DNA from: Rhodospirillales bacterium
GTDB lineage: Bacteria > Pseudomonadota > Alphaproteobacteria > Bin95
Assembly (NCBI GenBank): GCA_008081395.1
Contig: VMCJ01000071.1
Coordinates: forward strand, 27,420-91,419
Direction: 5' to 3'
DNA: 64,000 bases
Below the pieces are notes generated by a model that saw nothing but the letters and a program-made list of their open reading frames with translations, ran no database searches and was not told where the DNA came from. Shown here piece after piece: positions 2,748 through 28,923 of this stretch. Both the position numbers and the translations under genes were made by a program. How positions within the stretch are numbered: the stretch's first letter is position 1; each line of letters begins with the position of its first letter.

Positions 2748-5180
2748 ATGACTTCAATAGAACGTGACCCAGTCTGCGGTATGACCGTTGACCCGAAAAC
2801 AGCTAAGCATACCCATATCCATTCTGGTGAAGAGTATAATTTTTGCGCCAGTCGTTGCCGTGAAAAGTTCATGGAGGCGCCAGAAGATTTCATTGAAGCG
2901 CAAGATTTAGTCTGTGGTATGACTGTGTCTCGAAAAACCTCAGAACATATGGCAAAGCATGACGGAGCCCGTTTCTATTTCTGCTCCTCGAATTGCCTTG
3001 ATAAATTTGAAACTAATCCAGACAACTACCTAGATGGCAACCAGACCACCGTCACGGCACCACCTGGTACTATCTACACCTGCCCAATGCATCCAGAGGT
3101 TGAGACCATAGGTCCAAGTGACTGCCCTCTCTGCGGGATGGCTTTAGAGCCAATGGGTTTGCCCGACCCAAATGCGGGCCCCAATCCAGAATTCATCGAT
3201 TTCCGTCGGCGCTTCATTTTGGGAGCCGTGCTCACCATTCCTCTTTTTATGATTTCTATGGGGTCTATGATTGGTCTGCCTTTAAACAGCTGGCTTAATG
3301 CAGACATTGTTCCATGGGTTGAGCTTACTCTAGCAACTCCAGTGATCCTATGGTGTGGATGGCCCTTCCTTCTTCGGGGGGGGCGATCATTCATATCTAT
3401 GAACCTCAACATGTTTAGTTTAATCGGCATCGGTGTGGCTGCTGCCTATGCCTTTAGCGTATTTGCAGTAATTGCACCGGGTCTGTTTCCTGCAGGTTTT
3501 AAAAGTCCAACTGGTCATGTTGGGGTTTATTTTGAGTCAGCGGCAGTAATTGTCGAGCTAGTGCTATTGGGCCAATTACTTGAGCTTGGTGCCCGCGATC
3601 GTACTGGATCCGCCATTAGGGCCCTGATGGGCCTGACACCCCAAACAGCCAATTTGATTGATACCGACGGTACCGAAAAAGAAATTCCACTTGATAAGGT
3701 TAAGGTAGGTGACCAACTACGCGTAAAACCTGGCGGAATGGTTCCAGTAGATGGTGTCGTGTTTGATGGTTGGTCAAGCGTTAATGAGAGCATGTTAACA
3801 GGCGAGCCAATCCCTGTTGAAAGAACGTCAGGTGATATTGTCAGGGCAGGAACAATTAATGGTTCTGGAACGTTCCTTATGAACGCTCAACGCGTCGGCT
3901 TAGAAACCGTTCTCTCTCAAATTATTACTTTAACAGTGGCTGCCCAAAGGTCACGTGCCCCAATTCAAAAAGTAGCAGATGCGGTGGCTGGGATATTCGT
4001 ACCAATTGTGATTCTTGTGTCCATTATTTCGTTTTTAGCTTGGGCTAATTGGGGGCCAGAACCGCGTCTTTCATATGCTCTTGTATCTGCGTTAGCTGTT
4101 TTGATAATCGCATGTCCGTGTGCAATTGGATTGGCTACACCCATGTCAATCATGACAGCTACAGGACGAGGAGCACAGAGTGGAGTCCTTGTAAAGGATG
4201 CCGAAGCTTTGGAGCGATTCTCGAATATTGATACCTTGGTTGTGGATAAAACTGGCACTCTAACTGAGGGTAAGCCGGTAGTTACAAACATTTATCCAGC
4301 AAACGGCTTTAACCTGAAAGACATTATTTTCTTTGCCGCAAGTCTAGAGAACCAGTCCGAACACCCTTTGGCGGCCGCGATCACAGCTCGAGCAAAAGAA
4401 CAAAACCTCCAACTCTCCAACCCCCAAGATTTTACGGCCCTGCCTGGAAGAGGGGTTATAGGCCGGGTTGAAGGTAGCCGTGTCGTCCTTGGTACGAAAT
4501 CATTCTTGTCTGCCGAAGGCATCCCATTCTCAGAAAGCCTCGCTAACAATTATCAAAATAGCGTGCACAGTGAGGTAATGGTGGCTGTGGACGGAAAATT
4601 GGCTGGAATCATAGCCATCTCTGACCCGATAAAAGCATCCACACCAAGGGCAATCAGAGAGCTTCAGACCCTTGGCATAAGGGTGGTAATGGCAACAGGG
4701 GATAATATCAACGCTGCAACATCTATTGCGCGCCGTCTTGGTATTGATGAAGTCCATGCTGAACTTCTTCCAGAAGGAAAAATCCAACTAGTAAGTGAGC
4801 TAAAAACCCATGGGCTAAGAGTGGCAATGGCAGGCGATGGAATTAATGATGCGCCAGCTTTAGCTTCAGCGGATGTCGGTATCGCTATGGGTACAGGGGT
4901 AGATGTCGCGATTGAATCTGCAAGTATTACGCTTGCTGAAGGTGACTTAATGGGAGTGGTACGGGCGCGAAATCTAGCTATCGGAACAATGGCAAATATA
5001 CGCCAAAACCTTTTCTTCGCGCTTTTTTACAATGCTGCTGGAGTCCCGATTGCAGCCGGAATTCTATACCCGTTTTTTGGGATTATGCTTTCACCGATGT
5101 TGGCAGCTGCAGCCATGAGCCTATCTTCGGTTTGTGTTATTACAAATGCCCTTAGGCTTCGTAAAATTAGGCTACAATAG
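2748..5180 (+). CDS. copA: Copper-translocating P1B-type ATPase with two N-terminal YHS/TRASH-type metal-binding repeats
   Basis: CPC motif ([13 protein letters not shown]), DKTGTLT phosphorylation site, [10 protein letters not shown] hinge; two CGMTV...C..C..F repeats plus a YTCPMHPE...CPLCGM motif at the N-terminus. Confidence 0.9.
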
Positions 5181-11003: not shown

Positions 11004-12140
11004 GTGAAACGCGCCTTTTTTGCTATTTTGACGTTTTTTCTCAGTTTATTAGGCTTCACCGGACCCGCAGTGTCCGAAGAAGTTTATGTGCCTGTACTGG
11101 CTCCAATCACAGGCTTTTTAGCGCTGGAGGGTGGAGCGCAGCGCAACGGAGCTGTTTTAGCAGCTGAGCATGCTAGCACACGACACGGCATAAAATTTGT
11201 TGCAGATGTTCAAGATACAACCACTGCGCCAGACGTGGCAGTAAGTGCGTTTCGAAGAGCACTTAAAGGTAACAAGCCCACCGCGATATTAGGACCAATA
11301 TTGGGTTCCCAAATGCTGGCATTATTGCCGCTTGCGGATAGGGAAGAATTGCCAATCCTAACTATATCGGGAACCGCGAAGCTTACAGAAATGGGAAGCG
11401 CAAACGTATTTCGCTTTTTCCCTGGAGACAGCGTGGTAAAAGCCGCTCATGCCCTTTATGCCATTGATCAAGTAGGTATGAAACGCCCTGCAATTTTGTT
11501 CCAGACAACCGCATACGGACAAAGCGGACGCACAGTACTTAAAGAAAATTTAAAAAATCTAGGCGTTGCTCCAGTTTATGAAGAGGGCTTGTCTCCTGCA
11601 GCCAAAGACCTTTCAGCAGCTTTAATGAAGGCGGCAGCTGCCGGTGCAGATGGCTTTCTTTTACATTTACATGCGGGCCCAACAGCGCTTGCAATTCGAC
11701 AAGCAAAAGAACTGGGCCTCGATCTTCCGATTGTAGCCGGTTCCGCAATGCATCAACCTACGACTGCTGCTTTGCTAGAACCATCAATGCTAAAGGGGGT
11801 TTGTGCTGAATCAGGTTCGGCCCCTGCCGCAGAAACAAAGGGTGCCGCTAAAGTTTTTGCTGACGCGTACCGCGCCCGTTTTGATACTGAACCCGATGCG
11901 TTCGCACTCGCAGAATATGATGCCGTAGGTATGTTCGCAGAGGGCGTAGCCGCTGGCGCCAAATCACCGGAAAGCATGCGTAGTTGGCTTAGTAAAAACT
12001 CTTACAACGGTGCGGCCATGAACTATTCCAGCGATGGAAAAGGAGATATGGCTCATTCGGCGATCATCGTTTGCTATGATGGCGCATCACGCGATGCAAA
12101 GGTAGTTCGTCGATACAAAGACGGGGCTTGGGTGGATTGA
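11004..12140 (+). CDS. ABC transporter substrate-binding protein, branched-chain amino acid (LivK/LivJ) family
   Basis: N-terminal signal peptide (MKRAFFAILTFFLSLLGFTGPAVS); type I periplasmic binding fold; sits upstream of the livHMGF genes. Confidence 0.8.
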   Translation: MKRAFFAILTFFLSLLGFTGPAVSEEVYVPVLAPITGFLALEGGAQRNGAVLAAEHASTRHGIKFVADVQDTTTAPDVAVSAFRRALKGNKPTAILGPILGSQMLALLPLADREELPILTISGTAKLTEMGSANVFRFFPGDSVVKAAHALYAIDQVGMKRPAILFQTTAYGQSGRTVLKENLKNLGVAPVYEEGLSPAAKDLSAALMKAAAAGADGFLLHLHAGPTALAIRQAKELGLDLPIVAGSAMHQPTTAALLEPSMLKGVCAESGSAPAAETKGAAKVFADAYRARFDTEPDAFALAEYDAVGMFAEGVAAGAKSPESMRSWLSKNSYNGAAMNYSSDGKGDMAHSAIIVCYDGASRDAKVVRRYKDGAWVD

Positions 12141-12190: not shown

Positions 12191-13063
12191 TTGGACGCAC
12201 TTTCTTTTCAGCTTCTTTTTAATGGACTTGTTCTGGGAGCTGGATATGGCGTCTTGGGGCTCGGTTTTGCACTAACGCTTAGGGCTGCCGGTGCAGTTAA
12301 TTTTGCTCATGGGGATGTTGCCGCAGTAGCAGCCTATGGTGGGGTAACTGCAGTATTATTTGGGGCGACCGGGGTCCTTGCTGTTGGGGTGGCAACACTT
12401 GTAGGTGGAGCTTTAGGGCTTGTAGTGGCCGCTATTGCATGGGCACCTCTCCGTCAGCGCCCAGTAGAATCTACTTTCATAGCTGCCATCGCTTTAGGAA
12501 TAGTGGCACAAAATAGTTTAACTGTTGGTTTTGGCGGTGCGCCTCGAGCTTTGCCGGCTATTTTGAGTGGTGGATGGCGCCTTGATGGGCTTTATTTATC
12601 TGCCCACGGCATAATCTCTTTAGGAATGGCAATATTTGCCTTTACGTTTACAGCACTCTTGCTACTTAAAAGTCGATTTGGAATGCGGCTTCGCGCTGCC
12701 GCAGAGGATCCAGAAATAGCTGCTGCCCATGGGCTTCCTGTTATAAAGCTAGCAATATTTGCCTTCGTTTTTGCTGGAATTCTATCGGGATTGGCCGGAG
12801 CCATCTTATCCACCCAACATTATGTCACTCCTGCTGTTGGAGCTATTTACATTCTCAAGGCTTACATCGCTGCAACGGCCGCAGGATGGGGCCGAATCTT
12901 TCCAACTGCATTAATTGCAGTTGCTATTGCGCTATTTGAAACTATCGGAGCGGCGCTGTTCTCTCACGCTGTAGCAGAAGGTGTTCTTTATCTAGCTTTC
13001 CTAACACTGCTAGTTTTCCGACCAGAAGGTTTAGCTGGAGACGTCAGAGGACGCCGCGTATGA
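12191..13063 (+). CDS. livH: Branched-chain amino acid ABC transporter permease (LivH-like)
   Basis: Polytopic membrane protein; 290 aa. Confidence 0.8.
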   Translation: MDALSFQLLFNGLVLGAGYGVLGLGFALTLRAAGAVNFAHGDVAAVAAYGGVTAVLFGATGVLAVGVATLVGGALGLVVAAIAWAPLRQRPVESTFIAAIALGIVAQNSLTVGFGGAPRALPAILSGGWRLDGLYLSAHGIISLGMAIFAFTFTALLLLKSRFGMRLRAAAEDPEIAAAHGLPVIKLAIFAFVFAGILSGLAGAILSTQHYVTPAVGAIYILKAYIAATAAGWGRIFPTALIAVAIALFETIGAALFSHAVAEGVLYLAFLTLLVFRPEGLAGDVRGRRV

Positions 13064-14577
13064 GTCCATATGACCTGCATTTGCTTACATTAGCATTAGC
13101 TTTGGCAGCTGGTGCCATAGGTTGGCAAATTATATTTGGCCTTGCAGGAGCTCTATCGCTTGCCGCGGGAACAGCGATGGGACTAGGGGCATATGCTGTT
13201 GTCCTTCTAGCGCTTAAACTTGATTTGCCCTACGCCGTTGCCGTTCCCACCGCAGCTCTTATAGCCAGTCTAATTATTGCGGCTATGGGGGTCGCCGCTG
13301 CGAGGCTGGAAACTCACTACTTTGCTCTTGCCACACTCGCTATGGCGGAAGGAGTAGTATTAGTTGCTATTAACTGGGAAAGCTTGACTGGTGGGGCTAA
13401 TGGGCTCCTCGGTCCTACCCCTCCAGATTGGCTCTTAGATGATCAAGGCAAATTGTTCTTATCCGCATCGGTAACTCTAATCGCAGTATTCATTTATTCA
13501 TCATTTAAGCGATACGCTGGGCAAGAAAAGCTAGCTCTATTGCGTACACAACCATTGGCAGCAAAAGCTTTTGGAATAAATGGTCCACAAACAAGACTTA
13601 TAGCCATGCTAGCGGGTGGACTGTGCGGTGGTTTGGGAGGGGCGATACACGCACTTGCAGTTGGTGTTGTGTCCCCAGACATCCTGTCATTTAAAACAAT
13701 GGCCGCTATTCTGGCAGTGGTTCTTATTGGGGGGCGTTATAGTCCTTTAGCAGCTGTAATAACCTCGATTGCAGTTACTTTTGGGCCAGAATACCTGAGA
13801 TTTTTGGAAGATTCCTATTTGATCTTTTATGGCCTTCTTCTCCTTCTAGCTATTTTATTTCTTCCTACTGGCATAGCAGGGCTTTTCCCCAAATTTTCTC
13901 TTATCAGGTCCTCAAATAAGAAAGCCGAAAAATTTCCTATAAAAGATGAAATACCGCTGCGATCACAGGGACTCCACCGAAGTTTTGGCGGTTTAACTGC
14001 TGTGAATAACGTTTCTCTGAACCTTAAAAAGGGAGAAATTGTGGGCCTTATCGGTCCAAACGGGGCGGGAAAGTCAACGCTTCTCAATCTGCTGTCTGGC
14101 ATCGATCGACCGGATTCCGGTCAGATTGAACTAGCGTTCGGTGTTCGAATTGGTCGAACCTTTCAAACACCCGCATTAATTGAGGATGAAACAGTTGACG
14201 GTAATTATGCAGTGGTGGGCTACAAAAACAACGACCGGCGCCTGGTAAAATCCCTTTCGCAGAGCGAGCGTCGTTTCGTTGAGATTACCAGGGCACGTGA
14301 ATACGCCAACGGGGTCGTTCTGCTAGACGAACCTGCTGCCGGTCTCTCATCCGATGAACGCAGTAAACTAACCGAAGAAATTAGGAAATTAGCAAAAACT
14401 GCGGCTGTGGTGATAGTGGAACACAACGTTCCTTTCGTTGCTAAACTTGCTGATCGGCTCGTGTGCCTTTCGGAAGGTCGTATTATTGCTGATGGAAAAC
14501 CAAAAGACCTTGTTCGTAACCCTATCGTAGTTTCTGCATACCTAGGCGCAGCGATGGATTTAGGACATGAACAATGA
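13060..14577 (+). CDS. Fused LivM-like permease / LivG-like ABC ATPase
   Basis: Residues 1-290 are polytopic membrane; C-terminal ~200 aa carry Walker A GPNGAGKST, Walker B VVLLDEP and a degenerate signature (LSQSERR). Confidence 0.8.
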   Translation: MSPYDLHLLTLALALAAGAIGWQIIFGLAGALSLAAGTAMGLGAYAVVLLALKLDLPYAVAVPTAALIASLIIAAMGVAAARLETHYFALATLAMAEGVVLVAINWESLTGGANGLLGPTPPDWLLDDQGKLFLSASVTLIAVFIYSSFKRYAGQEKLALLRTQPLAAKAFGINGPQTRLIAMLAGGLCGGLGGAIHALAVGVVSPDILSFKTMAAILAVVLIGGRYSPLAAVITSIAVTFGPEYLRFLEDSYLIFYGLLLLLAILFLPTGIAGLFPKFSLIRSSNKKAEKFPIKDEIPLRSQGLHRSFGGLTAVNNVSLNLKKGEIVGLIGPNGAGKSTLLNLLSGIDRPDSGQIELAFGVRIGRTFQTPALIEDETVDGNYAVVGYKNNDRRLVKSLSQSERRFVEITRAREYANGVVLLDEPAAGLSSDERSKLTEEIRKLAKTAAVVIVEHNVPFVAKLADRLVCLSEGRIIADGKPKDLVRNPIVVSAYLGAAMDLGHEQ

Positions 14578-16440: not shown

Positions 16441-16556
16441 TATTTCAATTATAAACCGATGGTGTTGTCAAATATTTGGTAAATAAAAATTAAATATGAA
16501 TTTTATGTCTACATGAAATTATAATTTTTTATATTTATTTTGTGGTTTTTATTACA

Positions 16557-18962: not shown

Positions 18963-20848
18963 GACGCCATGTCAGCCCTGCGATTAGCTCTGACACGGCG
19001 CAACAAAGCTGTAATCGCAGCAGGAGTTACCCCCGGGGTCCGTGCAGCAGCTCCAATCGTCCGCGGCCTTGATGCAGTTAACTTTTGTCGAGCTTCGGTA
19101 GATAACCCCTCTATCTTCCAGAAATCGAGATCATTGGGCAATTCCATCGTTTCGTCGCGCTTGAAAGCCGCAACATCAGCCTCCTGCCGAGCGAGATATG
19201 TTGCATACTGGGCATCAGTAGATAGGCTCTCACGCGCCCACATCGGGGTATCCGCTATTTGCGGCCAAAGCGCCAGCAGTCCTGTCGAAGATGGACCAAA
19301 TCGCCCAAACAACTCCAAAGCTGTTCGGCGTTTGCCGTCAGAACTACCAGGCAATCCAACTGCCTCTAATTCAGAAGGTGATGCCGTTAGTGCGTTAAGC
19401 TTAGCCTCAAGGGCCTCCAATGCATTTTGTTTCACGTGAAACAAGTGCTGTCTGGGCTCTCTCACACACCCCAACTCTATTCCACGACCTGTTAATCGCC
19501 GATCAGCATTATCCGCACGAAGTCGCAACCTAAATTCAGCTCTCGATGTAAACATTCGATATGGCTCATCGACTCCTCGCACAACAAGGTCATCAATCAT
19601 GACACCCAAATACGCCTCTGTGCGATCAAATATTGCAGGGTCGTTGCCCCCTACTGTTCGGGCTGCGTTCAATCCGGCAACCAGGCCCTGAGCGGCTGCC
19701 TCCTCATATCCCGTGGTGCCGTTGATTTGGCCCGCTAAAAATAGCCGGGGTATCCGCCTTGTCTCTAAACTGTGATCCAGCTCCCTTGGATCAATAAAGT
19801 CATATTCCACTGCATAACCTGGTCGGGCTATTTCTACCGCCTCTAGACCTGGAATTGTTTGAAGGAACGCACGCTGCACATCTTCTGGCAAGCTCGTCGA
19901 GATTCCATTCGGGTATATAAGGGGGTCATTTAAGCCTTCTGGCTCAAGAAATATTTGATGATTATCTTTGTCAGAGAACCGGGTTATTTTATCCTCAATC
20001 GAAGGACAGTACCTTGGCCCCGACCCACTTATATTCCCACTATGAATCGCCGATTCATTAATCCGCGACCGAATTATGTCATGGGTCTTTGAGGTCGTGC
20101 GAGTAATATGGCAGACCGTTTGGGGTACCGTTATGCGTTCGGTGAGAGCCGAAAATGGCTCCGGAGGGTCGTCCCCTAATTGTGGCTCTAACACGTCGAA
20201 CCGAATGGTCTCCTTAAGCAACCGAGGCGGTGTGCCTGTCTTAAGTCGCCCCATTTGAAACCCTGCCACCTCAAGGCGCTCCCCGAGAACCGTTGCCGCC
20301 GCATCACCAACCCGGCCCGCTGGGCTGTTTTTGGTGCCTATATGGATAACGCCTCGGAGAAACGTACCGGTTGTAATAACTACAGCGCCCGCAACCAGCT
20401 CTTCTCCTGTTTCCATTCTGACGCCAGAGCAGTGCCCTTGGCCTGAAACCAAAATGTCAGCCACTGCTCCTTCCAAAACGCTTAAGTGGGTTTGTTCTTT
20501 TACTGCTTCTTGAATTGCCTCCCGATACAACGCACGATCTGCTTGAGCACGCGGACCGCGCACTGCCGGCCCTTTGCTGCGGTTTAAAACACGGAACTGA
20601 ATACCTGATGCATCTGCCGCACGCCCCATAATCCCATCTAGAGCATCAATTTCACGAACAAGGTGTCCTTTTCCAAGGCCCCCTATAGCTGGGTTGCAAG
20701 ACATCTCACCAATACGATCAAACCGATGGGTGATCAGCAACGTTTTCGCGCCAAATCTCGCCGCCGCGCCCGCCGCCTCAACACCGGCGTGGCCTCCGCC
20801 AACAACAATTACATCATAGTTATTTTTTATTTGTTTCACGTGAAACAC
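18959..20848 (-). CDS. mnmG: tRNA uridine 5-carboxymethylaminomethyl modification enzyme MnmG (GidA)
   Basis: N-terminal FAD motif [12 protein letters not shown]; 629 aa; GTG start at 20848. Confidence 0.95.
19428..19443. promoter_or_regulatory. parS centromere-like site (perfect TGTTTCACGTGAAACA) inside mnmG
   Basis: Exact 16-bp palindrome matching the ParB-binding consensus; it encodes FHVKQ in mnmG. Confidence 0.8.
20832..20847. promoter_or_regulatory. parS centromere-like site (perfect TGTTTCACGTGAAACA) spanning mnmG codons 1-6
   Basis: Exact 16-bp palindrome immediately inside the mnmG GTG start; it encodes M-FHVKQ. Confidence 0.8.
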
Positions 20849-22166: not shown

Positions 22167-22442
22167 TTAATCCGAACCAGATTGCCGAGATTTAGCGCCC
22201 GAGAAGCTTGTTTGCATCGCTTGTTCCCAAAACTGACGCACCGACTCTATGCCTTGACTTGCACCTGCGGCTCCAGGCATCCATTGGCTCCACAGCGCCT
22301 CAGGTTCCATGTTGGCTAAGCTCGTGCGCATTCTTTCTGTCATCTCTGAAAGCAAGGCGTCTTGCATGGGTCCTACGTCTGGTAACCCAAAAAACCGGCG
22401 GGCCTCTTCCGGCGTGGCGTCAATGTCGATGCTTATTTTCAT
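22167..22442 (-). CDS. Small hypothetical protein (91 aa), first gene of the mnmE-mnmG-rsmG-parAB operon
   Basis: ORF with no motif I recognise; co-oriented 14 bp upstream of mnmE. Confidence 0.4.
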   Translation of the reverse strand: MKISIDIDATPEEARRFFGLPDVGPMQDALLSEMTERMRTSLANMEPEALWSQWMPGAAGASQGIESVRQFWEQAMQTSFSGAKSRQSGSD

Positions 22443-22535
22443 AGAGATAACTCCAATAAGTCTGCCTTACGCTACATAATAGCGTTAAATTAAGTGCTTA
22501 ACACATAAGATATCGAGGAATTACCGTGATAGCCC

Positions 22536-23000
22536 ATGCTGATTGATGAACACATTATTTCTTCACCCCTTGGAAACCTCTGCCTCAAAGCCAACGCGGG
22601 CTCACTCGTCGCGCTCGAATGGACCGAAAGAGATATAACGCCAAAGCCTAAAAACACCTCTTTATCTCAGGCCAGCAACCAATTGCACCAATATTTTCTT
22701 AATAAAATCAATGGCTTCCGTGTTTCTCTCGCTCCCGAAGGGTCTGAATTCGAGTTGTCGGTCTGGCGGGCTATGACGCAAATCCCACATGGAACGACAG
22801 CGACCTATGGTGACATAGCAAAGATGACTGGAAAACCCGCCCAGGCGGTTGGATATGCATGTGGCCGTAATCCAATTCCAATCATTATTCCCTGCCACCG
22901 CGTAGTAGGCAACAATGGCCACATGGTTGGCTACTCGGGACAAGGTGGAGTTGAAACCAAGCGCTGGCTTTTGGCCCACGAAGGCGCTTTGTTGCTTTGA
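22536..23000 (+). CDS. ogt: Methylated-DNA--protein-cysteine methyltransferase
   Basis: Active-site PCHRVV motif (IIIPCHRVVGNNG). Confidence 0.8.
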   Translation: MLIDEHIISSPLGNLCLKANAGSLVALEWTERDITPKPKNTSLSQASNQLHQYFLNKINGFRVSLAPEGSEFELSVWRAMTQIPHGTTATYGDIAKMTGKPAQAVGYACGRNPIPIIIPCHRVVGNNGHMVGYSGQGGVETKRWLLAHEGALLL

Positions 23001-23080
23001 AAATCAGCATTGCGCCGCTAACGACCACACGGTTATCCTATACTTAAAGAATTATACAGCTCTCAGAGGGGGTATGAGTA

Positions 23081-23779
23081 ATGGCTGACTGGATCGAAAT
23101 TAAGGCAAATGATGGCGGAAGCTTTAAAGCGTACGTGGAAAAACCCAAAAGTGGCGCAGGTCCCGTAGTGATCTGCATCCAAGAGATTTTCGGCGTGAAT
23201 CACGCTATGCGGGATATTGCTAAACACTGGGCCGATCAAGGTTATATCGCTGTAGCTCCTGATCTGTTCTGGCGCCAAGAGCCAGGAGTCGACATTACCG
23301 ATCAGTCTGAAGCCGAATGGAAGAAGGCTTTTGAATTGTTTCAGGGATTTGACTTAGACAAAGGCGTTGAAGACCTCTTGGCCACCATTGCTCATTGTCG
23401 GTCAATGAATGGAGCAAGCGGCAAAGTGGGTACTGTTGGGTTTTGTCTTGGGGGCAAGCTTGCTTATCTACTAGCCTGCAGATCAGACGCGGATTGCAAC
23501 GTCAGCTACTACGGTGTGGGGATTGAAGAACTTCTTGGAGAGGCACAAAACATCACCAATCCTCTAATGATGCACATTGCCGAAGAAGATGGGTTTGTAT
23601 CTAAAGATGCACAGGCAAAGATCAATGAGGGGTTAAAAGATCACAACTCTGTGACAATCCACAACTACCCTGGAATGGATCATGCTTTTGCACGCATAGG
23701 AGGGGTACCGTATGACGAAGAGAATGCAAATTTAGCTAACTCTCGCTCGTTGGAAGCTTTTAAACGGGCTTTAGCGTGA
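23081..23779 (+). CDS. Dienelactone hydrolase family protein
   Basis: Alpha/beta-hydrolase nucleophile elbow GFCLGG and DLH-like length (232 aa). Confidence 0.8.
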   Translation: MADWIEIKANDGGSFKAYVEKPKSGAGPVVICIQEIFGVNHAMRDIAKHWADQGYIAVAPDLFWRQEPGVDITDQSEAEWKKAFELFQGFDLDKGVEDLLATIAHCRSMNGASGKVGTVGFCLGGKLAYLLACRSDADCNVSYYGVGIEELLGEAQNITNPLMMHIAEEDGFVSKDAQAKINEGLKDHNSVTIHNYPGMDHAFARIGGVPYDEENANLANSRSLEAFKRALA

Positions 23780-24783
23780 CCAAGCTTGAGCCTGTTGAAA
23801 GCAAAGCCGCATGGAGGGCATGTGATCTAGCGGCTGAGGGGGATTGGCGTTTACGTCTTAGTTCTAAAGAGATCGATGAACTTATTAAAGCAACAGATCT
23901 TGCTCTCAAAAAACAGGTGCCTATTGAGAAATTGACGGCATCTGATTTTGCCCTCCCAACGCTCTCAAAAAAAATTAGTAGCCTCCGAGAAGATCTGGAG
24001 GGCGGGCGAGGCTTCGTAGTAGTACACGGTATGCCTGTTGAGCGCTTCAGCTTAGAAGAAGCACAAGTAATGCACTGGTGCTTTGGCCAACATCTAGGGT
24101 ATCCGGAGCCACAAGATAAAGCAGGAAAACTCTTTCACGTCGTAACTGACACAGGTGCAAATGTTGAAACAACGGATAACATTCGCAGCTTTCAGACTAA
24201 TGATGAACTGACATTTCATACCGACGGAGCAGATGTTTTCGCGCTTTTATGTTTTCGACCGGCAAAATCTGGCGGTGGATCCCGATTAGTATCATCAACC
24301 GCCATTTACAATGAGTTGCTGCAACGAGACCAGAAACTGGCGGCAATCCTCACAGCTCCATTTCACTTTGATGCCAGGGCTCAAAATCCTTGGGAAAAAC
24401 AAACACAGACCGTTCCTATTTTTAACCTACACGATGGAATGGTTTCAGCACTTTACAAACGACGGTACATCGAACTTGCACAACGGTTCGAAGATGTTCC
24501 AAAACTGACAGATAAACAAATCGCGGCAATGGATCTTCTTGATGAAGTAGCCAACGACCCTAACATGCACCTTGCCCTAAACTTAGAGCCGGGAGACCTG
24601 GAAATAGCTAATAATGCTACCTGTTTCCATGCTCGCTTTAATTATTCTGATTATGATGACCCACGTTTGAAGCGCTGCATGCTGCGCCTCTGGTTATCCC
24701 TGCCGAATGGCCGGCCTCTTCCTAAAATATTCGAAACAACAAGAGAATGGGGCCCTACTTATGCTCGCCGTTTAAAAGCATAA
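23776..24783 (+). CDS. TauD/TfdA-family Fe(II)/2-oxoglutarate-dependent dioxygenase
   Basis: HTD facial-triad motif (FHTDGAD); GTGA start overlapping the upstream stop. Confidence 0.75.
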   Translation: MTKLEPVESKAAWRACDLAAEGDWRLRLSSKEIDELIKATDLALKKQVPIEKLTASDFALPTLSKKISSLREDLEGGRGFVVVHGMPVERFSLEEAQVMHWCFGQHLGYPEPQDKAGKLFHVVTDTGANVETTDNIRSFQTNDELTFHTDGADVFALLCFRPAKSGGGSRLVSSTAIYNELLQRDQKLAAILTAPFHFDARAQNPWEKQTQTVPIFNLHDGMVSALYKRRYIELAQRFEDVPKLTDKQIAAMDLLDEVANDPNMHLALNLEPGDLEIANNATCFHARFNYSDYDDPRLKRCMLRLWLSLPNGRPLPKIFETTREWGPTYARRLKA

Positions 24784-26247: not shown

Positions 26248-26697
26248 CTAAAATGGTTTTACAACAACCATTATTACAATAATTATCATCGATATTGTGG
26301 GCACTTCGTTGGCTACTCTGAAGTATCGTTGGCTTTTCCGGTTCGTCCCTTCCGCTAGATCCTTGCGCCATTTGCCCATGGCATGATGGCACCCTGTTAA
26401 AACCAAAATCGCCAGAATTTTCAGCCAAATCCAGCCAGAGCTCCAATCAACAATGCCAGGTGTGAGTATCAACAAAATTCCAAATATGTACGAAACTACC
26501 ATCGCGGGATTCATTATAGCGCGCAGGAGTCGGCGCTCCATAACTTGGAATCTATGATCTTCTATCGAATTTAATTCGACTTCTACGTGATACACAAAGA
26601 GCCGAGGAAGATAGAGAAGTCCAGCCATCCAAGACATCACCGCAATAATATGAATTGCTTTGAACCATGGATAACTTCCTATGAGGAATTCACTCAT
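26248..26697 (-). CDS. hemJ: Protoporphyrinogen IX oxidase, HemJ family
   Basis: HemJ signature N-terminus WFKAIHIIAVMSWMAGLLYLPRLFVYH; 4-bp overlap with hemE. Confidence 0.8.
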   Translation of the reverse strand: MSEFLIGSYPWFKAIHIIAVMSWMAGLLYLPRLFVYHVEVELNSIEDHRFQVMERRLLRAIMNPAMVVSYIFGILLILTPGIVDWSSGWIWLKILAILVLTGCHHAMGKWRKDLAEGTNRKSQRYFRVANEVPTISMIIIVIMVVVKPF

Positions 26698-27731
26698 GCG
26701 CTATCCCTAATTCTTTTAATAAGAGCTTCTACATTAGCTATTGGTGTCTCGGGTGTAATTCCATGACCTAAGTTGAAAATAAACGGTGAGTTTCTGTTGG
26801 AGTTAAGAATGTTATCAATCTCTTTAATAAGGAAATCACCCCCACAAATTAATGTAACTGGATCTAGATTACCTTGTGGTATCGCCCCAGCTTTACGAAC
26901 ATGGTCAAACGCTTCTGTAGGTAAAGATTGACCCAATGACACAGCATCAACTGCTGGCAAAGCCGCAAAATCACTAACAAATGCATCCGCCCCTCGCGGA
27001 AATGCTATCACTTTAGCACCTGGATGAGCTGCTTTGACAATTTGTGCTATTCGACCAATAGGTTCCAAACTCCATGCTTTCACACCATAAGCCGGCAATG
27101 CGCCAGCCCAACTATCAAATATCTGCACAACTTCGGCCCCAGCTTCGATTTGGTTGATCAGATGTTTGGATATTGCTGACTCCAATAAATTTAGGAGTTT
27201 TGACCATGCGCTTGGCTTTTCTAAAGCAAACTTTCTCGCTTTGGCGTAATCGCGACTACCCGCACCCTCAATCATATAAGCTGCAAGCGTCCAAGGAGCT
27301 CCTGCAAATCCAATAAGCGCGGTTTCCTTTGGAAGCTTATTTCTGGTTTGTGTCACAGCGGAATAAACTGGTTTGAGAAATTCTGTTACCTGTCCAAGAT
27401 CCAAATTGTTCACGTCATCCGATGTATTTAAGGCATTTAATTTTGGACCAAAGCCTGGTTCAAACCATACTTTTTGCCCAAGTGCATGAGGTAAAACCAA
27501 AATATCAGAAAAAATTATTGCAGCATCAAATCCAAAACGGCTTATCGGCTGCAAAGTTGCTTCAGTCGCCATATCAGGCGTGTAACAAAATGTTAGAAAA
27601 TCTTTCGCTTGTGTTCGAAGCTTGCGATATTCGGGTAGATAACGACCTGCCTGACGCATTAGCCACACAGGGGGTCTTGGCGCTGCTTTGCCACTAAGAA
27701 CAGAAGATAAGAGATTTTGAGTTTTCATCAT
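26694..27731 (-). CDS. hemE: Uroporphyrinogen decarboxylase
   Basis: URO-D N-terminal motif PVWLMRQAGRYLPEY; 345 aa. Confidence 0.9.
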   Translation of the reverse strand: MMKTQNLLSSVLSGKAAPRPPVWLMRQAGRYLPEYRKLRTQAKDFLTFCYTPDMATEATLQPISRFGFDAAIIFSDILVLPHALGQKVWFEPGFGPKLNALNTSDDVNNLDLGQVTEFLKPVYSAVTQTRNKLPKETALIGFAGAPWTLAAYMIEGAGSRDYAKARKFALEKPSAWSKLLNLLESAISKHLINQIEAGAEVVQIFDSWAGALPAYGVKAWSLEPIGRIAQIVKAAHPGAKVIAFPRGADAFVSDFAALPAVDAVSLGQSLPTEAFDHVRKAGAIPQGNLDPVTLICGGDFLIKEIDNILNSNRNSPFIFNLGHGITPETPIANVEALIKRIRDSA

Positions 27732-27999
27732 GGTGACAAGGAATATCTTCTTATTCTGTTAAATAACACTACTAAACAAAACTTAATTTAATATTGATTG
27801 TTGTAGTTAGAGTGACTGATATCGGGGATAAAAACTCTAAGCAAAAAATTGCTAACAGGATAAAAAAAAACCTCCATTCGTTGATTTACAATAGACAGGG
27901 CAATCGACTCGTTAAATTTATTAAAGACCTGAAGGAAGTATCCTGTGGAAGTATCAGGGATAGGTTTTTTTCCCCTCAATTATCAATTTGGATTTCCAC

Positions 28000-28008
28000 T
28001 GTGGATAT
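28000..28008 (-). promoter_or_regulatory. DnaA-box candidate (revcomp ATATCCACA, 8/9 to TTATCCACA)
   Basis: TGTGGATAT on the plus strand, inside a CCACTGTGG palindrome. Confidence 0.5.
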
Positions 28009-28040
28009 CACGACTGAAGGAAATATCTGTTATGAGGGGA

Positions 28041-28049
28041 GTATCCACA
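28041..28049 (+). promoter_or_regulatory. DnaA-box candidate (GTATCCACA, 8/9)
   Basis: Inverted relative to the box at 28000-28008, 32 bp apart; weaker boxes at 28069-28077 (TCATCCACC) and 28081-28089 (TTATCCTCT). Confidence 0.5.
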
Positions 28050-28194
28050 ATGAGAAAAAAGATACATTTCATCCACCTGTTTATCCTCTACTAGTCCACC
28101 ATTTCTTCCATATATGTGCATCGCTTTGAGGGAGATTTTTTTTACGTTTTAGTCATTAAGATTCGTTTTGACGTTTGTTGTAGGTGGAATATTT

Positions 28195-28317
28195 TCAAGA
28201 TATTTTTTATCTTTTTAACTATTGTTACGATGTATAAAAATGTACTCATAAATAAATGAAGTAAAAATAAATAAAATATAAATAATAAATATATATATAT
28301 GTAGGAAGGTAAATATA
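28195..28317. other. Candidate DNA-unwinding element (almost pure A/T run) abutting the maf start
   Basis: taaaaatgtactcataaataaatgaagtaaaaataaataaaatataaataataaatatatatatat; a near-exclusive A/T stretch. Confidence 0.4.
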
Positions 28318-28923
28318 TTGAAGACACTAAAGCCAATTATATTAGCATCTGCGAGCCAATCACGACGGTCTCTTCTATCTGCATCTGGTGTTGAATTTGA
28401 TGTGGTTGTCTCGAATGTCGACGAAGACGAGATTAAAAACATAGCCAAGCAAGATGGTTGGACTGTTTCAAAAACGGCTTTGGCTTTAGCTGCTGCAAAA
28501 GCTGAAGCTGTTCAAACTATGCATCCCGAGGCAATTATCATTGGTGCTGATCAGATGTTAGAACTTGAAGGTAATTGGTTTGACAAACCTTCTTCTGTGG
28601 AAGTTGCAAAAAAACAGCTTGAAGCTCTTCGTGGTAAGACCCATCGACTTCTTTCAGGCCTAGTTTTGCTTGCACCGGAAAAAGAACGCTGGACCCATAT
28701 TGAGTCAGCAGATCTAACAATGAGAAATTTTTCGGATACTTTTTTAGATAGTTATATCCAAACTCTTGGGGAAGAAGCCTGCAAATCTGTAGGTGGCTAT
28801 TTTCTTGAAGGTCTAGGGGTACAAATGTTTGATCAAGTGAGGGGAGACTATTTCACTATATTAGGTCTCCCTATGGCACCTCTTCTTAATGCACTTCGAT
28901 TAGAGGGGGCATTATTATTATGA
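28318..28923 (+). CDS. maf: Maf-family nucleoside triphosphate pyrophosphatase
   Basis: Maf N-terminus ILASASQSRRSLL; TTG start with AGGAAGG RBS. Confidence 0.85.
   Translation: MKTLKPIILASASQSRRSLLSASGVEFDVVVSNVDEDEIKNIAKQDGWTVSKTALALAAAKAEAVQTMHPEAIIIGADQMLELEGNWFDKPSSVEVAKKQLEALRGKTHRLLSGLVLLAPEKERWTHIESADLTMRNFSDTFLDSYIQTLGEEACKSVGGYFLEGLGVQMFDQVRGDYFTILGLPMAPLLNALRLEGALLL

Follow-up and report, generated by a model that had tools for sequence, protein, structure and literature searches.

In a 64-kb stretch of the genome of an uncultured Rhodospirillales bacterium (contig VMCJ01000071.1, positions 27,420–91,419; hereafter the window, in whose numbering all coordinates are given), the gap between hemE and maf is, as far as sequence can tell, very probably a DnaA-dependent chromosomal replication origin, oriC. 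By its location it belongs to the hemE-linked class represented by Cori of Caulobacter crescentus. The initial annotation of the window had proposed a chromosomal origin in this gap, and the proposal is now supported by a switch of strand asymmetry, a phylogenetic footprint over the DnaA boxes, the proximity of parS sites, and the conserved synteny on the hemE side. Seven in silico criteria were used by Ioannidis et al. (PMC1914354; referred to below by their letters, a to g). Six of them agree with what we found in the gap, the boundary genes (a) correspond by half, and the integration host factor (IHF) part of the binding-site criterion (c') has no counterpart.

The gap spans 586 bp (27732–28317), within the 200–1000 bp of criterion b; the window has 12 intergenic regions of 90 bp or more, and none of the others is as long. 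The gap is also the most AT-rich of the long intergenic regions, with 70% A+T compared with 52% for the window (criterion e, A+T above the genome average, with the window taken as comparison), and in all ten relatives the gap is more AT-rich than its own locus. Its left boundary gene is hemE, encoding uroporphyrinogen decarboxylase (26694–27731, minus strand; TIGR01464, E = 5.6e-115), which is transcribed away from the gap; its right boundary gene is maf (28318–28923, plus strand; NF002690/TIGR00172). According to NCBIfam matches, parB, parA, rsmG, mnmG, mnmE, rho, hemJ, and hemE lie on the minus strand and maf, aroE, coaE, and dnaQ on the plus strand; dnaQ, priA, xerC, and a dGTPase gene are also found near the gap. 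This agrees with the gene order given initially, from which four genes between mnmE and rho had been left out. These occupy positions 22167–24783 and comprise a DUF6489 open reading frame (ORF; minus strand) and ogt, a YghX-like hydrolase gene, and a TauD-like dioxygenase gene (all plus strand). The likeness to the hemE-adjacent origins of Caulobacter and Rickettsia, which the initial annotation had also pointed out, holds for the order parAB-rsmG-mnmG-mnmE...rho-hemJ-hemE followed by (DUF299)-maf-aroE-coaE-dnaQ, except that the DUF299 gene is missing here. Cori was mapped between hemE and this DUF299/COG1806 gene (PMC6393856, PMC1914354). For criterion a, which names hemE and COG1806/DUF299 as boundary genes (PMC1914354), we thus found hemE and the maf-aroE-coaE-dnaQ run and no COG1806/PF03618 gene. 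The divergent layout of hemE and maf was observed in about 25 loci of Alphaproteobacteria; no HemE match from outside this class showed it.

Raw GC skew in the window tracks gene orientation. We therefore fitted the coding-strand GC skew at third codon positions (GC3 skew) of 60 genes with a constant and a term for replication side and compared all inter-gene change-points. The best change-point is at 27732, with a residual sum of squares of 0.58; the null model gave 1.015, and a model without switch 0.999. None of 2000 permutations matched the observed fit, and a Mann–Whitney test gave p = 1.5e-7. The six best change-points fall within 26.1–29.8 kb, an interval in which the gap is the sole intergenic region longer than 170 bp, and the cumulative G3–C3 curve draws a clean V whose minimum lies directly after hemE (27731/27732). 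Mean GC3 skew left of the gap is +0.164 for minus-strand and −0.068 for plus-strand genes; right of the gap it is +0.081 for plus-strand and −0.062 for minus-strand genes. The effect is therefore independent of the direction of transcription. On either side of the gap, G prevails on the leading strand (r = +0.085), which indicates the polarity of an origin and not that of a terminus. The skew shift of criterion g is accordingly present locally, over 64 kb. Among the relatives, whose loci of 13 kb were considered, the same sign pattern was found in L001–L004 and 14 of 15 go in the expected direction; this is supportive, and we give it little weight because it is confounded by gene strand. The GC3 skew of ogt and of the hydrolase and dioxygenase genes is already lagging-strand-like, so their arrangement between mnmE and rho is not recent.

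Nine DnaA-box-like elements, ten TCC[A/C]C cores, and five boxes with at most two mismatches are present in the gap; criterion c calls for at least four DnaA boxes, and the TCC[A/C]C core of these elements is conserved. Each of the other 11 intergenic regions of the window has at most one core and two boxes, which is the comparison, made within the 64 kb, that criterion d concerns. The richest 300-bp segment (start 27941) holds nine cores versus 0.83 expected (Poisson 2.4e-7), and the observed core count was reached in 0 of 5000 composition-matched shuffles. The enrichment in boxes and cores is 5- to 7-fold and recurs in all ten related gaps. The 64 kb contain only 15 boxes with at most one mismatch, which cluster most densely at the gap and the 5′ end of hemE. 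The sole perfect TTATCCACA of the window, at 4241–4249 (minus strand), stands isolated inside a copA-like P-type ATPase gene and is probably a chance occurrence.

The phylogenetic footprint was derived from ten aligned gaps (the window, L001, L081, L002, L082, L003, L083, L004, L084, and L140), from loci of 42–68% GC. L001, the closest, is an uncultured Rhodospirillales metagenome-assembled genome (JAYQLI010000035.1, a 2.86-Mb contig) with a HemE 96% identical to that of the window. HemE identity decreases to 76–77% in L002 and L082, 67–69% in L003 and L083, and 62–65% in L004, L084, and L140. Outside conserved islands, the identity of the gaps is as low as about 26–29% in distant pairs, and nearly all the islands are DnaA-box-like elements. 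Because circularity had to be avoided, the statistic was repeated on just those five boxes that had been defined without the alignment, from the window sequence. These are 60–87% identical to the relatives versus 26–61% for the rest of the gap (Fisher p 7e-4 to 9e-7). With L002, for instance, they share 87% identity, compared with 61% for the non-box DNA of the gap and about 71% for the nucleotides of hemE. The binding sites are thus conserved in the sense of criterion f (PMC1914354), and their order and orientation are preserved among relatives. The pooled orthologous boxes yield the consensus (T/C)(T/C)ATCC(A/C)C(A/G), with 20 A and 20 C at position 7; the clade therefore mixes canonical TCCACA and W-type TCCCCA cores.

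The boxes are arranged in two arrays, boxes a, b0, b, and d on the minus strand to the left and boxes e, f, g, and h on the plus strand to the right. Box a (TTATCCCCG, 27823–27831), a 7/9 match with two mismatches and a W-type TCCCC core, was not listed in the initial annotation. Its orthologue is found in all ten aligned gaps, as TTATCCCCG in six and also as ACATCCCCA, TCATCCCCG, CCATCCCCC, and TTTTCCACG. A conserved block that is not a box, ATAGACAG...AATCGACTCGTT (27891–27913), includes a GANTC site (27906–27910); it is identical in L002, and its CGACTCG also occurs in L084 and L140. Box b0 (ACTTCCACA, 27944–27952) is weak with an intact TCCACA core, and its start precedes that of box b, on the same strand, by 11 bp; its counterpart is AAATCCACA in L002 and L082, and ATCCAC-type cores lie nearby in L003 and L004. 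Box b (CTATCCCTG, 27955–27963) is a degenerate W-type element in the window, with an ATCCC core, and was defined from the alignment and not a priori, its orthologues being CCATCCCCA, TCATCCCCA, CTATCCCCG, CCGTCCCCG, and TTATCCCGC. Box c (TTTCCCCTC, 27969–27977, plus strand), also defined from the alignment, has a W-type TCCCC(A) core, and (G/T/A)TCCCCA is found at its position in L003, L083, L084, L140, and L004.

Next comes a palindromic double box (27993–28008), in which a plus-strand element, ATTTCCACT (27993–28001), overlaps box d (ATATCCACA, 28000–28008, minus strand, ATCCACA). The near-palindrome seen there initially corresponds to CCACTGTGG at 27996–28004. In L002, TTTCCACTGTGGAT of the double box is identical, and an ATCCACA or GTCC[A/C]CA core is present in nine of the ten gaps, L004 having TCTCACA. 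Box e (GTATCCACA, 28041–28049, plus strand) retains the core TATCC[A/C]C across the ten gaps (ATATCCCCA, TTATCCCCA, ATATCCCCC, and others). Our box scan recovered d and e as the two inverted 8/9 matches, 32 bp apart, of the initial annotation, and its two weaker boxes, f and g, as 7/9 matches. Boxes d and e are the probable higher-affinity nucleation pair. Between e and f lies an A-tract block, GAGAAAAAAGATACATT (28052–28068), nearly identical in L002; it does not match the IHF consensus and could bend the DNA intrinsically or bind a nucleoid protein. Box f (TCATCCACC, 28069–28077, plus strand) keeps ATCC[A/C] in seven of the nine other gaps. It is followed on the same strand by box g (TTATCCTCT, 28081–28089) and by box h (TAGTCCACC, 28092–28100), which reads TCCAC in eight of the nine other gaps, including a perfect TTATCCACA in L003, and TCCAG in L004. 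The weak boxes f, g, and h are in helical phase, with start-to-start distances of 12 and 11 bp, as are b0 and b (11 bp).

Two perfect copies of the 16-bp parS palindrome TGTTTCACGTGAAACA are located 7–8.5 kb from the gap, one inside mnmG (19428–19443) and one at the 5′ end of mnmG, within the coding sequence (20832–20847). In Caulobacter, parB is less than 10 kb from Cori (PMC5587793), and in Azospirillum the distance between parAB and the hemE–yqfL oriC is about 12 kb, with palindromic 16-bp parS sites (bioRxiv 10.64898/2026.09.14.751567).

In most of the alphaproteobacterial loci with the divergent layout, a gene of about 278 codons separates the gap from maf. Its product, PpsR-like, belongs to PF03618 (Kinase-PPPase, formerly DUF299; E = 1e-91). 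The gene is present at the gap in L003 (4750–5586), L004 (4693–5529), L083, L084, and L140, and missing there in the window, L001, L081, L002, and L082; tblastn detected no copy or remnant of it in the 64-kb window. This gene (COG1806/RP001/CCNA_00001) borders Cori in Caulobacter and the origin of Rickettsia (PMC1914354, PMC6393856), and yqfL (DUF299) borders the predicted oriC of Azospirillum (bioRxiv 10.64898/2026.09.14.751567). Because it is absent here, maf directly abuts the candidate origin. The loss of this usual neighbor is the only unusual trait of the locus as a hemE-linked origin.

The box arrays are flanked by AT-rich DNA on both sides. On the hemE side, an AT island (27744–27800) is a candidate DNA-unwinding element; its 40- to 50-mers (z-scores of about 3.8–4.0) are among the least stable of the window, 27744–27793 being an outlier with z about 4. 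Its sequence ACTAAACAAAACTTAATTTAA is identical in L002. In all five relatives bearing the PF03618 gene (locus GC 54–68%), the least stable 40-mer of the gap lies 30–85 nt from the hemE ATG (z = 3.4–4.7), and box a reads TTATCC... toward the island from about 22 bp away. The island is probably also the promoter or leader of hemE. On the maf side, a longer tract (28130–28317) includes the least stable 100-mer of the 64 kb (28200–28299, z = 6.4). The initial annotation had described positions 28195–28317 as almost pure A/T and as a likely unwinding element. The position and the AT-richness are correct; the composition, 85% A+T, was overstated, and the assignment must be qualified, as the tract is lineage-specific and the AT island conserved in position adjoins hemE. 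The tract occurs only in the window, L001, L081, L002, and L082, all devoid of the PF03618 gene. The window and L002 share its AT-richness but show no conservation of its sequence. In the PF03618-bearing relatives, the start codon of that gene comes about 40–60 bp past box h. The sole sigma-70-like site of the region, TTGACG-16-TATTTT (28168–28195, plus strand), lies in the tract. In our reading, the maf-side tract is an alternative unwinding element restricted to this lineage, the promoter region of maf, or both; it may simply supply a promoter to maf after the loss of the upstream gene. We favor the hemE-side island as the putative ancestral unwinding element, because the maf-side tract is lineage-specific, the hemE-side island is conserved in position, and box a, present in all ten gaps, is directed at it.

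From this arrangement, a sequence of events at initiation can be proposed. DnaA-ATP would bind first to the inverted pair formed by boxes d (28000–28008, minus strand) and e (28041–28049, plus strand). Cooperative oligomerization would then fill two divergent arrays of weaker sites, the left one through boxes b, b0, and a (minus strand) and the right one through boxes f, g, and h (plus strand); many of the array boxes are of the W type (TCCCC), and the right array is phased at 11–12 bp. The duplex would open at an AT-rich flank, most likely the hemE-side island (27744–27800) or, alternatively, the maf-side tract (28130–28317). Helicase loading at this point would give rise to bidirectional forks, which would produce the observed skew.

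Several observations weigh against an origin at this locus. No box of the gap is perfect with respect to the consensus, the best being 8/9 matches, and the definition of four of the nine (b0, b, c, and h) drew on the alignment. We did not find dnaA among the approximately 55 ORFs scanned in the window, a scan that left out the larger ORFs of 42–45 kb and 50.6–52.8 kb; a second box cluster beside a dnaA gene located elsewhere is therefore conceivable. In Alphaproteobacteria with hemE-type origins, dnaA usually lies away from the origin. The skew is local to 64 kb, and an old inversion with an endpoint here could in principle give such a switch. Co-orientation of genes with replication is weak: left of the gap it concerns 13 of 25 genes, and right of it 22 of 35. 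A scan with the E. coli-type IHF consensus WATCARNNNNTTR found no site in the gap (c'), and Ioannidis et al. pointed out that the full set of criteria cannot always be satisfied (PMC1914354). We also searched for the basal unwinding system (BUS), defined as a box with at most two mismatches followed, after a spacer of at most 16 bp, by at least three DnaA-trios (NAN) running into AT-rich DNA (PMC8287927), with a strand convention derived from the arrangement of R1 and the unwinding element in Escherichia coli and not from that article. Only minimal runs of three trios were obtained; they overlap other boxes, and none is beside either AT-rich flank. The pattern is found at 20% of all boxes with at most two mismatches in the window, which is its background rate, and no convincing DnaA-trio run was found in the gap. 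Finally, the gap has no full TTAA-N7-TTAA CtrA site and a single 7/8 site, at 27773.

The scan also retrieved the partial CtrA-type motif TTAA-N7-TTGA (27783–27797) that had been recorded initially, together with the lack of a full site. The doubt expressed about it was justified, as L002 has lost both the spacing and the second half-site. With no full site and a partial site that is not conserved, CtrA regulation was rejected, and the locus does not belong to the CtrA-type origins. Most other alphaproteobacterial origins show no CtrA sites either; such sites are essentially a feature of Caulobacter, possibly also of Rickettsia (PMC4468827). Control of the Dam/SeqA type was likewise rejected, as the gap contains no GATC; its two GANTC sites do not amount to a significant enrichment.

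If the gap were only the divergent promoter-regulatory region of hemE and maf, its box motifs would be sites for a transcription factor, DnaA or another, and the true origin would lie elsewhere, for example beside dnaA. The divergence of the flanking genes, the sigma-70-like site at 28168–28195, the conserved hemE-side block that could be a promoter, the imperfection of all boxes, and the failure to find dnaA in the window scans are in line with this explanation. We nevertheless consider it improbable: the GC3 skew switches exactly at the gap with the polarity of an origin, and nine elements in two oriented arrays far exceed the need of an operator, the other 11 intergenic regions having at most two. 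Promoter and origin functions are moreover compatible, as the hemE promoter of Caulobacter lies within Cori. In addition, parS sites are nearby, and the location is that of experimentally mapped origins (PMC6393856, PMC1914354). The skew switch could also mark the endpoint of an ancient inversion or rearrangement, the box cluster being a DnaA-titrating or DnaA-reactivating locus similar to datA or DARS. That the skew is known only locally and that the loss of the DUF299 gene shows the locus to have been rearranged speak for this scenario. We judge it even more improbable, as the same polarity is observed at the hemE gap of L001–L004 and of most relatives (14 of 15, partly confounded by gene strand), the synteny on both sides is ancient, as in mapped origins, parS is adjacent, and a titration locus needs no conserved AT island.

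A further alternative accepts the gap as an origin and concerns the place of opening. The maf-side tract (28195–28317) might have become the unwinding element, or share its role, after the loss of the DUF299 gene. No other DNA of the 64 kb is as unstable as this tract; boxes f, g, and h share one orientation and a helical phasing and are directed at it, and its AT-richness has been kept in L002 and L082 despite the divergence of the sequence. However, none of the five relatives with a PF03618 gene has the tract, and in them the least stable segment adjoins hemE; the strongly AT-rich part of the tract begins only 34–95 bp past box h; no DnaA-trio run accompanies the right array; and it could simply be a new maf promoter plus a deletion scar. 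We regard opening in this tract as possible though rather unlikely. Slightly more doubtful still, and put forward tentatively, is the view that the origin was remodeled after the loss of the DUF299/PF03618 gene, the new, extremely unstable maf-side AT tract of about 190 bp now acting as the unwinding element or providing a second. If true, this would be a natural example of an unwinding element that has moved between the two ends of a conserved scaffold of DnaA boxes.

The preferred reading of the gap as a hemE-linked origin can be compared with known systems. As in Cori, the gap is immediately upstream of hemE within the order parAB...hemE followed by ...maf-aroE-coaE-dnaQ, parB and parS lie within about 10 kb, boxes of moderate quality (9-mers) are mixed with weak TCCCCA-type, W-box-like elements, and there are an AT-rich element of about 40–50 bp and GANTC sites. 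The AT-rich region of Cori is on the hemE side. In contrast to Cori, which has five TTAA-N7-TTAA CtrA sites, the gap has none, and it lacks an IHF consensus. Its best boxes read (A/G)TATCCACA and not as the G-box, TGATCCACA; in Caulobacter the latter is distinguished from the weak W-box, TCCCCA (PMC4285127). The gap further differs from Cori in the missing DUF299 boundary gene, with maf adjoining, and in the extra maf-side AT tract of about 190 bp.

The comparison with oriC of E. coli is one of architecture. E. coli has a helically phased layout of two arrays, in which R1 reads TTATCCACA toward the unwinding element. The gap resembles it by two opposed arrays of mostly weak sites flanking stronger ones, with weak sites about 11 bp apart (f-g-h and b0-b), and by the orientation of the box nearest the putative unwinding element, directed toward AT-rich DNA as is R1. 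It differs by its location, oriC of E. coli being between mnmG and mioC, and by the lack of GATC, 13-mer repeats, and IHF or Fis consensus sites. The origins of Rickettsia prowazekii and other Rickettsiales are, like the gap, adjacent to hemE, 200–1000 bp long, and A+T-richer, with a DnaA-box cluster and a skew shift. In Wolbachia, Ehrlichia, and Anaplasma, COG1253 replaces COG1806 as the boundary gene opposite hemE (PMC1914354). Here, on the other hand, maf has become the border through the loss of COG1806/DUF299 and not through the insertion of another gene, and IHF and CtrA sites are missing. In Azospirillum, a member of the Rhodospirillales, the order of L001, oriC is predicted between yqfL and hemE, with about six DnaA boxes of mixed orientation (bioRxiv 10.64898/2026.09.14.751567). 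It is likewise hemE-adjacent with parAB and parS nearby and differs in having kept yqfL/DUF299; the likeness is one of description.

Inside the gap, an ORF of 111 codons (27794–28129) was rejected as a small protein gene: it has no family match, its codon positions are unbiased (43/45/39 substitutions relative to L002, compared with 68/45/191 in hemE), and it has frameshifting indels relative to L002. The coordinates, the AT bias, and the non-coding character attributed to the gap initially are right. A known RNA was also rejected, an Rfam scan of the gap at E ≤ 1 giving merely a sub-threshold chance match to a snoRNA. Elsewhere in the window, a convergent spacer of 116 bp with 83% A+T (16441–16556), just downstream of parB, ranks second in instability; in Caulobacter, the DNA that follows parB stands out as a site of GapR binding (PMC5587793). 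A thiamine pyrophosphate (TPP) riboswitch (RF00059, 10910–11013, plus strand), which at 59.5 bits exceeds the gathering score, extends over the GTG predicted as the start of ORF 11004–12140; this ORF has no NCBIfam match at E ≤ 1e-25, and its true start is probably further downstream. ORF 13060–14577 (plus strand, 505 aa) belongs to an ATP-binding cassette (ABC) transporter operon of the urea/branched-chain type. ABC ATPase models match only its C-terminal part, approximately residues 300–500, and it may be a permease–ATPase fusion or have a mis-called start.

The locus is a new member of the known hemE-linked alphaproteobacterial class, with two modest peculiarities, the loss of the DUF299 gene, comparable to the COG1253 replacement in Anaplasmataceae, and the AT tract. 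Predictors of the Ori-Finder/DoriC type would probably find it, and the gain in understanding is thus incremental. The assignment would fix coordinate zero and the polarity of replication for a poorly sampled lineage of uncultured Rhodospirillales. The footprint over ten genomes indicates that a mix of TCCACA and TCCCCA boxes, arranged as two divergent arrays, has been conserved far beyond Caulobacter and without CtrA sites, and the locus would add another case in which the boundary gene opposite hemE is dispensable in this class of origins.

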